Source: Salinispira sp. (GTDB taxonomy: Bacteria; Spirochaetota; Spirochaetia; DSM-27196; Salinispiraceae). From it: a stretch of DNA of 64,000 bases. The DNA is taken from positions 64,001-128,000 of the forward strand of contig CBDDDG010000001.1 of the NCBI GenBank assembly GCA_965226555.1, written 5' to 3'. The position numbers were made by a program. Position 1 is the first letter of the stretch, and every line of letters begins with the position of its first letter. Below, one piece after another: positions 21,001 to 27,000 of the stretch.

Positions 21001-24000
21001 GAGGAGCCTCATATATCCTGCCGGCAACATCCATGAGGGCATGAAAGTCCGATTGCCGTATTTTTCCCTTGCGCAGCAGGTTGCTGGGGATGTGCGTTTC
21101 GAGGGAGATGAGTCGGAGCATGAGCTGCATGTCGGCCATCTCAAGGCTGAAAAATCCTGCAGTTTGCTTGTCTTTTCGCAGACAGATGTTACGGATCATG
21201 GAAAGCGCGAGGGCAGTTTTTCCAATTGATGGGCGGGCTCCAATGATAATGAACTCCGATTTTTGAAATCCGTCAGTCATGTTGTCGAGTTCAGTAAAGC
21301 CGCTTGCTACCCCGGTATGCTGCCACGGATTATTGTAATGATCTTCAATTGTTGCAATAGCCCGGGAAATAGTCTCCCTGACCTGTCGGAAATTTCCCGC
21401 AAATTGCGTATTTGTAACATCAAAAATCTTCTGTTCGGACCTGTCGAGAATCTGCTCAATGTTACCCGATGTGTCATAGGCATCATCACTAATATCTACC
21501 GCCAAGCGCAGGAGAGTTCTTCTCATGCTATTTTCCCAGACAATACCGACATAATACTGAACATTACTGCTGGTCGGTACTGTTGAGGTAAGCGTGGAAA
21601 TATACGAGGCGCCTCCAATCTCATTGAGAAGATTTTGAGATTGAAGTTCGTCCGTCAGGGTAATAATGTCAACAGCTTCACCCTTACTGAAAAGATTCAG
21701 TATGGCGGTATATATTTTCTGATGCGCCTGACGGTAGAAGTCCTCGGATCGTAAACGGACATGTACTTCGTCCATTACGGTATCCTTCGGATTCAGTAAA
21801 ATTGCTCCGAGACATGCCTGTTCCGCTTCAATGTTATGGGGAGGCACCCGCCCGGGTGAGGAACTGGGCACGTTGTGTTATTCTCCTTCCTTCAGGACGC
21901 TCACTGCGAGAATAGCTTCTTCATCATTATACAGATGAATGGTGATATTATAGTTTCCAAGATATTTCAGCGTATGCCCCGGAATATCAATTTTTTTCCG
22001 TTCAACAGTAATGTCTCTGGCTTCGAGGGCATCAATAATCATGTGCGCAGTTACGGCTCCGAAGAGTTTACCCTTATCTCCCGCGGGCATACGAAATTCA
22101 AGGGGAGTATCGGCAATACGCTCTTTTACCGAAAGTGCCTGTCGGCGCTTTTCTTCCTTATTCTTTGCGATGAGATTTTTTCTGCTTTCGAAAAAAGACA
22201 GATTTGCCTTATTGTACATGGAGACCAGTTTCTTCGGCAGGAGATAGTTACGCGCATAGCCTGCGGATACTTCAAGAATATCCCCCTCCTCACCAAGCTC
22301 TGCAATATCAGTGTTCAGGATCACTTTCATATTTTTTCCTCGTGTGTATTTTTATTCAATTGTGGAATCCAGATTGATGCAATACCTAAAATAACTAGCC
22401 CTAGGATAAAGATTGCATTTACTCCGGGCACCAAAATAGCCAATATCAGCAATGCTGGTATAAAGGGTTTTTTCCCCAATAAACCGGCCAGAATACCAAA
22501 ACCTTTAAGGAAGTATAGCAGGGCAGCAAAAAGAAAACAATTCCACCCAATGTAGGAAAGGGGAATAATGGTAAGAATTTCTCCTGCCATGAGTACTATT
22601 GCAGATACAATAAATACCCATATGAACCATTCTGGAAAGTTGAGGCGAATCCGCAGTAATGATGATACACCGCTGCCCAATGCTCGTCCAAGTCCGTATC
22701 CGAGAATGAGAGACAGGGTTGAGCTGAGTACGATTGCGCGCAGGGCCAGATCGAATATGAAGTTGATCTGCTGTTCAAGACCCTGACGCGGTACGATTGC
22801 TGCAAAAAGTTCTTCAATTTCTGGACTTCCTTCCAGCGCGGAGATGATGCCTGTGATCAGCGTATCCCGTCCAGTAATGCCTAATACCAGTATCGTGCCA
22901 AGGGTACAGAAAAGAGATGCAATGATAAGCCTCTTCCACCCTTCGTTGAACTGAAGCATATTAAGCGCAGCAAGTCCCGCAAGCAGCCCGAGGGGAATGA
23001 GTATCTCCTGTCCAATACCCCGAAAAACGGAAAGAAGCAGGCCAGTGCACAGGGAAATGACAGAACTCAGCAGAAATTCCTGTCGTCCATACTTCGACCA
23101 TGTGAATTGAAGAGGCGCAAGGTAGAAAATACTCAGTGAGTACATGAACAATCCGCTGAAAACTCCGGCAATTACGGTGGGAATACATATGCGGGGGGGT
23201 GGAATCTCAATTTTCATAATCTCAGCCCATTGGCAGGAGGCCAAGGTAACGTGCCCGCTTTATTTCTCTTACCAGAAGGCGCTGATTCTTTGCTGAGGTT
23301 CCGGTATTTCTCCGGGCAAGGATGCGTCCCTTTTCGGTAACGAATCGGCGGAGTATATCCGGCTGTTTATAGTTGATAGTAAGGTTCTGTGTTTTGATCC
23401 TATCGACTTTTTTCTTGAAAAAAAGCTTTCCGGTTCTGCGCTTCATTGGTCGGCGCATGTCACGGTCGTTGTTTTCGACGCTGGTAGTGTCTCTGTTGGC
23501 CGGGGATTTGCCTTTGTCGGGCGGAGTAGTGTCAGCCTTTTCCTGCTTGGGTGCTTCCTGCTTGGGCGCTTCCTGTTTAGGTGCTTCCTGTTTAGGTGCT
23601 TCCTGCTTGGGCGCTTCCTGCTTGGGCGCTTCCTGCTTTGGCGCTTCTTGCTGAGGCGTTTCCTGCTTGGGCGCTTCCTGCTTGGGTGCTTCCTGCTTGG
23701 GCGCTTCTTGCTTGGGCGCTTCCTGCTGAGGCGCTTCTTGCTTGGGTGCTTCCTGCTTCGGTGTTTCTTGCTTTGGCGTTTCCTGCTTGGGTGCTTCCTG
23801 CTTGGGCGCTTCCTGCTTGGGCGCTTCTTGCTGAGGCGTTTCCTGCTTGGGCGCTTCCCGCTTCTTAGGTACTACCTTCTTCTTTGGTGTTTCTTGCTTG
23901 GGCGTTTCCTGCTGAGGCGTTTCTTGCTTTGGCGCTTCTTGCTTGGGCGCTTCCCGCTTGGGTGTTTCTTGCTTGGGCGCTTCCCGCTTTGGCGTTTCCT

Positions 24001-27000
24001 GCTTCGGTGTTTCTGGCTTTGGCGCTTCTTGCTTCGGTGTTTCTGGCTTTGGCGCTTCTTGCTTCGGTGCTTCCTGTTTAGGTGCTTCCTGCTTGGGTGT
24101 TTCTTGCTTGGGCGCTTCCTGTTTAGGTGCTTCCTGCTTGGGCGTTTCTGGCTTAGGCGCTTCCCGCTTCTTAGGTACTACCTTCTTCTTTGGTGTTTCT
24201 GGCTTTGGCGTTTCCTGCTTGGGCGCTTCTTGCTTGGGCGCTTCCTGTTTAGGTGCTTCCTGCTTGGGCGCTTCCTGTTTGGGTGCTTCCTGCTTGGGCG
24301 GAGTGCTGTCTTTGTCGGGCGGAGTAGTGTCAGCCTTTTCCTGCTTGGGTGCTTCCTGCTGAGGCGCTTCTTGCTTTGGTGTTTCTTGCTTGGGTGCTTC
24401 CTGCTGAGGCGCTTCCTGTTTAGGTACTACCTTCTTCTTTGGTGCTTCTTGCTTGGGCGTTTCCTGCTTGGGTGCTTCTTGCTGAGGCGTTTCCTGCTTG
24501 GGTACTACCTTCTTCTTTGGTGTTTCTTGCTTGGGCGCTTCCCGCTTGGGCGCTTCCCGCTTGGGTGTTTCTGGCTTAGGCGCTTCCTGTTTAGGTGCTT
24601 CCTGCTGAGGCGCCTCCTGTTTAGGTGCTTCCTGCTTGGGCGCTTCTTGCTTGGGCGCTTCCTGTTTAGGTGCTTCCTGCTTGGGCGCTTCCTGCTTTGG
24701 CGCTTCTTGCTGAGGCGCTTCCTGCTTGGGCGCTTCCCGCTTCTTAGGTACTACCTTCTTCTTTGGTGCTTCCTGCTTGGGCGCTTCCTGCTTGGGTGCT
24801 TCCCGCTTGGGCGTTTCCTGCTGAGGCGTTTCCTGCTTTGGCGCTTCCTGCTTGGGCGTTTCCTGCTTGGGCGCTTCTTGCTTGGGCGCTTCCTGTTTAG
24901 GTGCTTCCTGCTTGGGCGCTTCCTGCTTTGGCGCTTCTTGCTGAGGCGCTTCCTGCTTGGGCGTTTCCTGCTTGGGCGTTTCCCGCTTGGGCGTTTCCTG
25001 CTGAGGCGTTTCCTGCTTGGGTGTTTCTGGCTTTGGCGTTTCCTGCTTAGGTATGTCTGGTTTTTCGTTCATATGATCCTCCATTAAAAGGGAATATCGT
25101 CATCAAAACTGCTGTCAAATGATTCTGGTGATTCTGGCGCAGCAGTACTTCCATTGCCGGTATTGGCATTTGTTTGTTGATGTGCGCGTTGATCGTTTCG
25201 TTGATCGTTTCGAGAAGAACCGCCGATGAGTTGAATATCGTTTACAAAAATTTCAACCCTGCTGCGGTTCTGTGATGTCTGCTTATCCTGCCAGCGATTC
25301 TGCTGAAGCGTTCCCTGAAGTGCAACCTGCTTTCCTTTCAGCAGATAACGCTGAAGAGCGTCGGCTCTGCGCCCCAGCATAACGGCATCGAAGAAATGGC
25401 TTTCTTCAACCCATTGGTCGCCGTCTTTTCTGCTTTGCGTATTCGCAATGGAAAAACGGACAATTGCGGTTCCTGATGCGCTGTATTTTGCTTCCGAATC
25501 GCGGGTAAGGCGGCCGATAATTAATACGGAATTAATGTCTGTTACCATAAGTTTCTCCTTTATTCGTTGCAGCGGATTACAAGAATGCGGATTAAATTCT
25601 CAATGAGAGCGACATTCTTTTCAATTTGATGAGCCTTGTCAGGCTCCATGGTAAATTTGAATACAAGATAGTGTGCATCAAGCTGATTTTTTATGGGATA
25701 GGACAGCATCCGAACACCCATGTCATGTTCCGAGATTGATTCTGCCCCCAGTTCTGTAATGTGGGAAAGAATCTCTTTTTTGCCGCTGGTGAACAGATCT
25801 TCTTCAGACCTGAATACACAGGCTGCTTCATAGGTTCGCATGTTTCCTCCTTGCGGACCAATCGGCGAAGCTTCAGACCTCACCGAAATTGACTATCCTG
25901 TATCCATCCTCTTTTCAGGTCAGGAACAGCCAGAATAGTAAAGAGACAGGAATATCATCCTGCAATATATATCGTGTATTGAATGATTATTACACAATAA
26001 GAATCATCCTACTACAGAAAAAATAGTGTGTCAATTCATTGTCAAGTTATTTTTGGGAAATAAACACGGATGGAAACAGTGAACAGCAGTATCACATATT
26101 CTCAGTATCATCGCAAGTCTCGGAAGTATCAGGCTGCGGCTGCGATGTATGATTGGCGATTTAATATCATTAATTACAATTGCCTGATCTATTTTTTCTT
26201 TCACAATTATACCTTATCATCACTCATTTCAGTGCATTGATAATTTCCACCACCTGCTTTACTTTCTGCCCAGACCCCTGCCTGCTTATAAGCAGGGCAT
26301 CTTCTGTTTCTACAACGATTAGGTCGTCTATGTCAATAAGCGCGATCTGTTTTTTCGGATGCTGTTGAGTAATGACCATGTTTCGCTGCGCATCAATGTG
26401 GATCGGCGTGGCGGTATGGGGTGTATTGGGCGGCTGCGGAGCCGAAGCCTGCGGAGCTGAAACAAACAGGTTATCCCCGGATGTCCGCGTAAGGGCATTT
26501 TCATTTCCGCTTTCGGGGCTGCGGTAGTACTCGTACAGGGAATCTAGGCTGCCGAGGTCGCTCCAGCCGAAACTGCAGGGCAGTACGGTAATGCGGTTAC
26601 TGTGCTCCATGACTGCGTAGTCGATGGAGACCGATGGAATTGCCTCCATGAGCTCAGTCTGCGGCTGCCAGAATTGACGCCCGGGCTGGCTGTTGGGCGA
26701 GGCGGCGGGCGGCGGAGCGAATGCAGTGCCGGCACTATCTGCCTGAACAGCGCGGGCGCAGGCATCATGAACTTCGGGGGCATGAAGGCTCAGTTCTTCC
26801 AGCAGAACGCCTGCTTTGAAGCAGAACATGCCGCTGTTCCAGTAATAGTTGCCGGCCCGCAGGTACTCGGCGGCAGTTGCCTCATTGGGTTTTTCACGGA
26901 ATGACCTGACCGCATAGGAGTTCTGCGGGGAGCTGACCGCGGTATCCGCTTCAATGTAGCCGTAGCCTGTTTCCGGGCGGGTCGGAGTAATTCCGAAGGT

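Follow-up and report, generated by a model that had tools for sequence, protein, structure and literature searches.

The sole copies of rpsR and infB in this Salinispira sp. genome carry in-frame repeats that would give ribosomal protein bS18 and initiation factor IF2 long, probably disordered tails. We consider, with a probability of roughly 0.6, that these tails are likely translated and grew by duplication at protein ends tolerant of length change, in a lineage prone to small duplications. The giant arrays are not the tail end of a general duplication drift but sevenfold outliers. Positions at the rpsR locus refer to the window, i.e., the 64,000-nt stretch of contig CBDDDG010000001.1 analyzed here (GCA_965226555.1; 93.5% complete, 6.67% estimated contamination). 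Coding density in the genome is ~82%, and its content of genes that we take to be ankyrin, fibronectin-III, WD40 and TPR-like suggests that this uncultured spirochaete lineage is likely host-associated. Run X1 may be the source sample, while read runs X4 and X5 represent a sister population 95–98% identical to the window.

Translation of rpsR (23222..25072, minus strand) yields a protein of 616 aa and ~70 kDa, roughly six times as long as S18 in the rest of its family. Its membership in bS18 is supported by the PF01084 match (72.8 bits, the cut-off being 21; E = 2.5e-20; residues 563–613), by a single tblastn match in the genome and by its position in the rpsF–ssb–rpsR–rplI operon. Alignment of the S18 core domain (23234..23386, minus strand) places it in the type without zinc-binding cysteines. 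N-terminal to this core lies the 15-bp array (23540..25048, minus strand), for which TRF gives 98.6 copies. Parsed by codon, it resolves into 90 five-residue units with the consensus (K/Q)(Q/R/P)E(A/T)P plus six internal inserts; five KKKVVP(K) inserts interrupt it, and a 12-residue block is found twice, once internally and once at the terminus. These results bear out the first-pass annotation, which had described ~520 N-terminal repeat residues and ~99 copies of the unit. Of its 520 residues, 112 are basic, 99 acidic and none aromatic; by this composition the tail is probably disordered. No source of the repeat elsewhere in the genome was found by blastn, no Rfam match was found in 21500–26500, and an ESM Atlas search returned no usable match. 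The long antisense ORF at 23648–25087 (plus strand) was rejected as a shadow frame, its openness being explained by a repeat that lacks TTA, CTA and TCA codons.

The rest of the operon is likewise on the minus strand. It begins with rpsF (bS6; 25560..25883, PF01250) and ssb (25084..25548, PF00436). Downstream of rpsR, a hydrophobic protein without a Pfam match (22327..23244), which presumably sits in the DUF2232 place, precedes rplI (21878..22330; PF01281 and PF03948), whose product bL9 has 150 aa and no tail. The operon ends with the dnaB helicase (20546..21871; PF03796 and PF00772).

Codon-level variation among the S18 units argues for translation. Synonymous diversity is high (pS 0.59) and pN/pS is 0.14; 7 of the 9 possible synonymous alleles are seen, against 4 of 36 non-synonymous ones (Fisher p = 2e-4), and the bias persists when only transitions are counted (5/5 versus 2/10, p = 0.007). 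Since the units differ mostly synonymously, the array looks translated, and we regard its translation as likely. The array also appears to be old and under amino-acid constraint: it is near synonymous saturation, whereas the small duplications elsewhere are young (median match 93%). The core itself has diverged: it departs at five positions on which at least 80% of 57 other rows agree, and three of these substitutions fall inside the motif G-K-I-L-P-R-R-x-T-G. Its PF01084 score is the lowest of 89 genomes, yet it remains 77% identical to its nearest relative, and FastTree places the S18 sequence of the window nearest to G006 and G004.

The second tail is found in infB (C21:364947–368975), also a single copy, whose translation gives an IF2 of 1,342 aa. 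Here too the first-pass description holds, i.e., a C-terminal tail of about 500 residues and ~81 copies of an 18-bp unit: we find 494 extra residues past domain C2 (~47 kDa, basic) and, by TRF, 80.7 copies. The G-domain motifs, PF11987, the place after nusA and 76% identity over 780 aa to the IF2 of P0012 all identify the protein as IF2, and the extra tail marks a variant rather than a loss of that identity. IF2 normally varies at its N-terminus. The usual end shortly after C2 is missing here, while IF2 in G001, G004, P0012 and P0013 ends ~25 residues after C2, and the closest IF2 lacks the tail. The repeat is a 14-codon mosaic; no codon-level sign of selection was detected in it, and no reading frame makes its variation synonymous. 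We infer that the IF2 tail is younger than the S18 tail.

Comparison with relatives suggests that both ends are permissive. S18 frames in 88 genomes of the order span 53–243 aa and IF2 reaches at most 1,076 aa; the S18 N-terminus is a variable, low-complexity site across relatives, and short charged IF2 C-tails occur at the same spot. Long-tailed spirochaete S18 proteins are found in P0007 (393 aa), P0005 (353), P0004 (307), G143 (301), P0155 (280), G108 (252) and P0002 (248), several of them with tandem repeats at the same protein end. Their units are mostly acidic and unrelated to the unit seen here. S18 N-tails expanded separately in other spirochaete clades; lengths of 248–393 aa with unrelated units in separate clades point to a permissive site and not to one conserved function. 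It had been claimed that only one other S18 exceeds 338 aa. Repeating that style of search returns the 393-aa protein alone, but our own search gives two, of 353 and 393 aa, and the 616-aa bS18 stays the longest in these searches. Spirochaete S18 tails form a natural series from ~90 to 616 aa that can test functional against merely tolerated extensions.

Small in-frame duplications are more frequent in this genome than in three relatives, even with the two giants left out: 17 versus 3 of 86 orthologs carry them (p = 5e-4), 19 versus 8 of 157 (p = 0.02) and 13 versus 4 of 123 (p = 0.05), a modest 2.4- to 5.7-fold excess in tests that cover ~0.1–0.4 Mb per relative; the first-pass count had been 30 versus 4 genes against another relative. 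Two smaller TRF comparisons were not significant (5 versus 2 of 20; 7 versus 3 of 38), and inserts of at least 8 aa showed no clear excess against two family relatives (35 versus 25 and 43 versus 48). The genome has 309 arrays/Mb; stretches sampled from three family relatives have 42, 85 and 41. There are 53 exact duplications where codon shuffling leaves 2–4, and the repeat period is divisible by 3 in 356 of 373 cases within genes but in 50 of 104 intergenic ones. Examples in the window are an 18-bp duplication in rseP (17262..17308, plus strand; TRF, Pfam and ortholog comparison) and, on the minus strand, a 12-bp duplication in ssb (25187–25212), an 18/54-bp duplication in a gene that we take to be rsmG (28907..29029) and a 36-bp duplication in mnmG (30954..31039; its ortholog scored TIGR00136). 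By TRF and read comparison, the sister population lacks one copy in ssb and in mnmG and is 72 bp shorter in the rsmG-like gene. In-frame copy-number changes of −12, −72, −36, +24 and +48 bp in ssb, rsmG, mnmG and manC demonstrate that small duplications are still turning over; this comparison concerns small arrays only and covers just the first 93 bases of rpsR. Between the populations, dN/dS is ~0.30, a value from 38 coding SNPs (40 of 242 variant rows) that is inflated by the closeness of the strains. Separately, an X5 contig ends at 25051, the edge of the rpsR array, and one record each from X4 and X5 seems to run past the left end into array-like sequence. We take this as no more than a slight indication, not counted as evidence, that the S18 repeat is present in the sister population.

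The drift proposed in the first-pass annotation is therefore real as an excess in housekeeping genes that is still turning over, but "proteome-wide" overstates it: arrays occur in just 51 of 353 orthologous genes (67 arrays in all), and the median protein length change relative to relatives is ~0. The further claim that the two tails are extremes of this drift is too simple. In these 353 genes, the giants measure 1,509 and 1,464 bp, the next array 204 bp and the median of the other 65 arrays 51 bp, which sets the giants 6.7 SD from the others once lengths are log-transformed. The S18 array also appears old, in contrast to the young small duplications. Outliers of this size are not what ordinary turnover by itself would predict. 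A general inflation of ribosomal proteins was also ruled out: none was seen in the S10-spc-alpha cluster or in ~12 others, all of ordinary size, the latter located with motifs taken from general knowledge after several too-loose ones had been dropped.

We hypothesize that slipped-strand and unequal-recombination duplication would have extended the two length-tolerant ends in a lineage where small duplications arise several-fold more often than in its relatives, and that weak purifying selection would let both tails persist. Selection against disruptive residues, and not for a specific binding job, may have kept the S18 tail proline-rich, charge-balanced and free of aromatics. By analogy with E. 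coli and chloroplast bS18, the tail would extend from the platform of the 30S subunit close to where the mRNA leaves; the two tails mark this platform, and the end of IF2 that binds tRNA, as sites that apparently can carry such bulk. This explanation has to face two difficulties: both tails belong to components of the initiation machinery, with every other ribosomal protein seen being normal, and ~59 kDa extra per ribosome is a real cost for drift to tolerate.

The loss of MutS2, which the first-pass annotation had missed, may have contributed to the repeat excess. Full-length MutS2 is missing here but retained in 56 of 56 other members of the order; what is left is an Smr remnant inside a contig, 63% identical to the Smr domain of a relative. 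Losses of xseA, recJ, a dnaQ-like gene, recA, mutS1, mutL, radA, recG, ruvC or rqcH were excluded, all being intact, mutS1 and mutL as previously reported. That loss of an anti-recombinase was the main cause of both the repeat excess and the giant arrays, a view compatible with growth at tolerant ends, is possible but doubtful. Duplications of 9–36 bp usually arise by RecA-independent slippage. On the favorable side, PMC3200294 describes suppression of homologous recombination by MutS2 in H. pylori and T. thermophilus. The survival of the Smr remnant alone amid an otherwise intact set of repair genes points the same way, as do two repeat-rich genomes (S18 of 301 and 252 aa) without MutS1, but these two belong to one family. 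Moreover, the S18 array, near synonymous saturation, could be older than the loss, given how similar the remnant has stayed to a relative's Smr domain, and the absence itself is read from an assembly that is 93.5% complete.

The same loss could be read functionally, and bS18 neighbours uS11. According to PMC10897456, the Smr domain of MutS2 makes contact with uS11 and uS7 on the stalled ribosome. The tails might then be adaptive, the S18 tail acting as a large entropic brush on the collision face of the 30S subunit, at the mRNA exit, that hinders tight packing of disomes or tunes initiation, paired with the loss of the collision-splitting factor MutS2, and the basic IF2 tail adding RNA affinity. 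We find this improbable, although several points fit: MutS2 is absent here alone among the 57 genomes, no short-period arrays in the genome are longer than those in precisely these two genes, the S18 units are constrained in amino acids, and the bS18 N-terminus projects into a platform cavity and contacts mRNA (10.64898/2026.07.03.736309). Against it, the combination is confined to one lineage: MutS2 is kept in 5/5 other long-S18 genomes and the IF2 C-tail is absent in 5/5, and tail chemistry differs across lineages. RqcH, a stand-alone Smr-like frame and tmRNA are still present, and bS18 is mentioned 0 times in PMC10897456. The strongest version, in which a 59-kDa bS18 polyampholyte brush at the mRNA exit prevents trailing ribosomes from forming collided disomes and makes MutS2 dispensable while the 47-kDa basic tail anchors IF2 at the initiating ribosome, is quite improbable; if true, a repeat-encoded tail would have replaced a ribosome quality-control enzyme. 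The lineage-specific loss of MutS2 is a candidate link to repeat instability or to the handling of ribosome collisions.

It is also unlikely that mature S18 is short, with the tail clipped by a protease or translation starting at Met539 or Met543 to give a protein of 74–78 aa. Such a protein would have canonical length and a basic N-terminus like that of solved S18 proteins. However, the Shine–Dalgarno site is the GGAGG at 25078..25082 (minus strand), just after the ssb stop and 5 nt ahead of the rpsR ATG, with a duplex energy of −9.3 kcal/mol against an anti-Shine–Dalgarno sequence taken from general knowledge. The internal methionines reach −0.3 and −3.8 kcal/mol, respectively, where 15 other genes range from −3.8 to −12.6, in line with the earlier report of a strong site only after ssb. 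Relatives start at this same point, and synonymous bias along a frame of 500 codons implies that it is translated. That the array length is an assembly artefact is hardly credible and the array is not one: it does rest on a single assembly with some estimated contamination and no listed read piece spans it, but all 1,725 127-mers of rpsR are unique (1,529 of 1,821 31-mers distinct, longest exact repeat 104 bp), as are all 99-mers for IF2 (longest exact repeat 89 bp), differences fall at third codon positions, unlike read errors, and 85% of the words from a stretch one-third of which is array are present in X1, with array-type contigs at depth 7.7–7.9 against 6.7–9.1 in the flanks.

The two tails have partial counterparts elsewhere. 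Our literature search, which left most subscription journals and supplements outside, found no direct precedent for bacterial S18 repeats and none for an IF2 C-terminal extension. In chloroplasts, bS18c shares a tandem repeat at the N-terminus (PMC2695775, citing Weglohner and Subramanian 1991; bioRxiv 10.64898/2026.07.03.736309). There it consists of 1–7 copies of a basic, aromatic 7-mer over up to ~55 residues, whereas the bS18 described here has 90 copies of a charge-balanced, aromatic-free 5-mer over ~520 residues; on sequence grounds, its repeat is analogous to the chloroplast type and not a member of it. Genome-wide variable repeats of the Ehrlichia type resemble ours in a density far above relatives and in strain-level copy-number change (here in small arrays only). 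They differ in being described as targeted at non-coding regions, with a coding ratio of ~64%, while in the present genome 735 of 921 arrays fall within called genes, domain repeats accounting for many of these. A further likeness is to the lineage-specific variable disordered regions of prokaryotic housekeeping proteins, including InfB, Rho, FtsK and MutL (PMC9425974), where essential proteins likewise carry Pro/Ser/Thr/Asp/Glu-rich short repeats with many indels. In that work, bS18 is not in the table and what is listed for IF2 is a variable insertion found in Firmicutes, while the tail described here extends ~500 residues past the last IF2 domain. Taken together, the giant bS18 array is an extreme case of an already known repeat-tail phenomenon.

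The bS18 protein of this Salinispira sp. genome is encoded by rpsR (window 23222-25072, minus strand), whose operon on that strand has the order rpsF-ssb-rpsR-(membrane protein)-rplI-dnaB. Translation, a PF01084 match at residues 563-613 and a TRF array with 98.6 copies of a 15-bp unit bear out the first-pass annotation, which had described a 616-aa bS18 with a repeat tail. Parsed by codon, the N-terminal tail consists of 90 units (K/Q)(Q/R/P)E(A/T)P, five KKKVVP(K) inserts and two 12-residue blocks; every stretch from the first to the last unit was parsed. The 1,342-aa IF2 with an 18-bp repeat tail, reported at the same time (infB, C21:364947-368975), also stands, with 80.7 copies counted. 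Both genes are single-copy. Among genomes of the order, the S18 frame of 625 aa compares with 53-243 aa in 88 others, some cut by contig ends (89 of 99 matched), and the IF2 frame of 1,347 aa is followed by 1,076 and 1,014 (90 of 99 matched). In database searches, the longest other S18 among the matches listed has 393 aa, and none of the best 150 of 3,427 representatives exceeds 307 aa. IF2 measures 783-1,004 aa in the best 120 of 7,999 matches, the closest of which (P0012; 82% in the region, 786 aa) has only a short tail; the closest named relative among the matches listed is Salinispira pacifica (P0017). The S18 core (window 23234-23386) has the lowest PF01084 score among 89 order genomes, and its conserved K-I-L-P-R-R-I motif carries changes.

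Around these genes, infB and rbfA are adjacent in the family relative G001 and approximately 6 kb apart here (C21:368980-374794), in an interval that contains rplU and genes that we take to be regulator-like, transposase-like, fibronectin-III-like and Rpn-like. Upstream of rpsF lies a multi-copy element (window 26060-26170) with 28 blastn matches in the genome and high read depth.

An assembly artefact as the origin of the arrays is contradicted by their sequence and depth. In rpsR the longest exact repeat spans 104 bp, no 127-mer occurs twice and 1,529 of 1,821 31-mers are distinct; in the IF2 tail the longest is 89 bp and no 99-mer recurs. Of the words sampled from a stretch of which the array makes up one third, 85% occur in sequencing run X1, where contigs of array type are covered to a depth similar to that of the flanks; X1 is possibly the source sample, so this read support is not independent. 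Both repeat arrays are real.

Several features make it likely, at the sequence level, that the S18 array is translated. Codon positions 2, 4, 7, 8, 11, 13 and 14 of the unit are invariant, and synonymous alleles are seen at 7 of 9 possibilities versus 4 of 36 for non-synonymous ones (p = 2e-4; transitions alone, 5/5 versus 2/10, p = 0.007). Pairwise comparison gave a pS of 0.59 and a pN/pS of 0.14, with no local homogenisation from unit to unit. The sole strong SD lies ahead of the first ATG (-9.3 versus -0.3 and -3.8 kcal/mol), the position at which the relatives' S18 also begin. The 494 codons of the IF2 tail are drawn from 14 codon types, with third positions nearly fixed and variants that resemble chimeras of its own hexamer sub-units; no sign of selection at the codon level was seen there, and its open frame tells little, since stops occur in just one of three sense frames. 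We infer that the IF2 tail is probably younger than that of S18.

Both ends appear to have been permissive sites, variable before the expansion. The relatives' S18 N-tails are low-complexity, rich in Arg, Gly and Asp and highly variable in length, and their IF2 carries a short charged C-tail where the tail begins here. In members of this family the whole S18 protein has 92-102 aa. Other S18 of 248-393 aa have unrelated, mostly acidic repeats and fall in two supported clades (96/99 and 100/100) of a tree built on few columns, and the present core is nearest to those of G006 and of the relative G004; long S18 tails would thus have evolved more than once. An IF2 C-tail was absent from all five other long-S18 genomes checked. 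The uS2 protein (window 12747-13721; 324 aa) has an acidic, proline-rich C-tail.

The first-pass annotation had placed both tails at the extreme of a genome-wide drift of in-frame tandem duplications, which holds in part. TRF found 921 arrays (309/Mb, many being domain repeats), compared with 42, 85 and 41/Mb in the relatives G001, G004 and G002 (0.4, 0.4 and 0.1 Mb sampled). With the two long tails excluded, array-bearing orthologs outnumber those of a relative in three sets (17 versus 3 of 86, p = 5e-4; 19 versus 8 of 157, p = 0.02; 13 versus 4 of 123, p = 0.05), the excess not being significant in two small ones (5 versus 2 of 20; 7 versus 3 of 38); the genes, of which 41 of 44 were scanned for their identity, include ValRS, TyrRS, PheS, MnmG, RimM, ClpA, PcrA, SSB and DnaE. 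Exact duplications number 53, versus 2-4 once codons are shuffled. A period divisible by three was seen for 356 of the 373 that lie in genes versus 50 of 104 intergenic ones, which indicates a reading-frame filter. However, only 51 of 353 orthologous genes have an array, inserts of 8 aa or more number 35 versus 25, 43 versus 48 and 53 versus 27 against relatives, protein length shows a median change close to zero, and the other ribosomal proteins seen are of ordinary size. A duplication background exists, but the two tails (1,509 and 1,464 bp) lie far beyond the next array (204 bp; median 51 bp).

Elsewhere in the window, a transposase-like gene separates members of a set of four small paralogs whose 33-bp repeats look coiled-coil-like (10-4086), and a lipoprotein-like gene of a large family has 75-bp repeats (8861-11440) and presumably fibronectin-III-like ones. 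The lipoprotein-like gene, with what we take to be ankyrin, WD40 and TPR-like arrays in the genome, suggests host association.

In-frame copy number appears to be still turning over in this lineage. Runs X4 and X5, from a separate study, contain a sister population approximately 95-98% identical to the window, in which, in both runs, ssb has one 12-bp copy fewer, mnmG one 36-bp copy fewer (and +24 bp in X5 only), an rsmG-like gene is a net 72 bp shorter and manC a net 48 bp longer (summed lengths for the latter two), differences that rest on single contigs at depth 3-7. The comparison further turned up an insertion of 11 bp at the edge of a gene, and four 1-bp changes that compensate. Among 40 of 242 variant rows, 38 SNPs are coding (19 synonymous, 19 non-synonymous); the resulting dN/dS of about 0.30, a value inflated in close strains, would fit weak purifying selection.

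Among repair genes, xseA, recJ, dnaQ-like, recA, radA, recG, ruvC and rqcH have intact frames, as do mutS1 and mutL, in agreement with the earlier annotation. A full-length MutS2 was not found in this assembly (93.5% complete); it is present in 7/7 family members and in 56/56 of the order's remaining genomes with a completeness of 90% or more. A 75-aa Smr remnant persists (C16:93497-93724, minus strand), which shares 63% identity with the Smr end in a relative. Its contig continues upstream into an unrelated gene, so that a deletion is a more probable cause of the loss than a break in the contig. MutS2 is described, in the accessible parts of the sources, as an anti-recombinase (PMC3200294) that also splits collided ribosomes, its Smr domain touching uS11 and uS7 (PMC10897456). 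Its retention in five other long-S18 genomes argues against a simple link between its loss and long S18. Two single-contig genomes of family f21, G143 and G108, gave no MutS1 match (nor, in G143, a clear MutL match); they have S18 of 301 and 252 aa and 168 and 175 arrays/Mb, respectively. In G004, mutS1 appears split into two frames (C1:1932562-1935143).

An adaptive role of the S18 tail at the mRNA exit is possible by analogy: the accessible part of 10.64898/2026.07.03.736309 has the bS18 N-terminus contacting mRNA in E. coli and projecting into the platform cavity in chloroplasts. The most likely explanation is a duplication-prone lineage with runaway growth at two termini: under weak selection, repeats would have expanded where frame and fold permitted, then run away at two exposed and already variable termini, after which selection would have kept the ageing S18 tail innocuous in composition, rich in proline and balanced in charge.

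No precedent for a bacterial S18 or IF2 tail of comparable size was found in a search of the literature that took in a minority of subscription journals and no supplements, and the available portions of PMC10618245, PMC4958920 and PMC12478362 hold nothing bearing directly on either tail. What is new is the tail size, including a C-terminal tail in IF2, and the lineage-specific loss of MutS2. As far as the available text of each source goes, Ehrlichia repeats are actively variable and chiefly non-coding (PMC10710844), variable disordered regions of housekeeping proteins, IF2 among them, have been catalogued (PMC9425974), and grass chloroplast S18 carries a heptapeptide in six to seven copies (PMC2695775). 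The two tails are an extreme form of an already known kind of protein extension.
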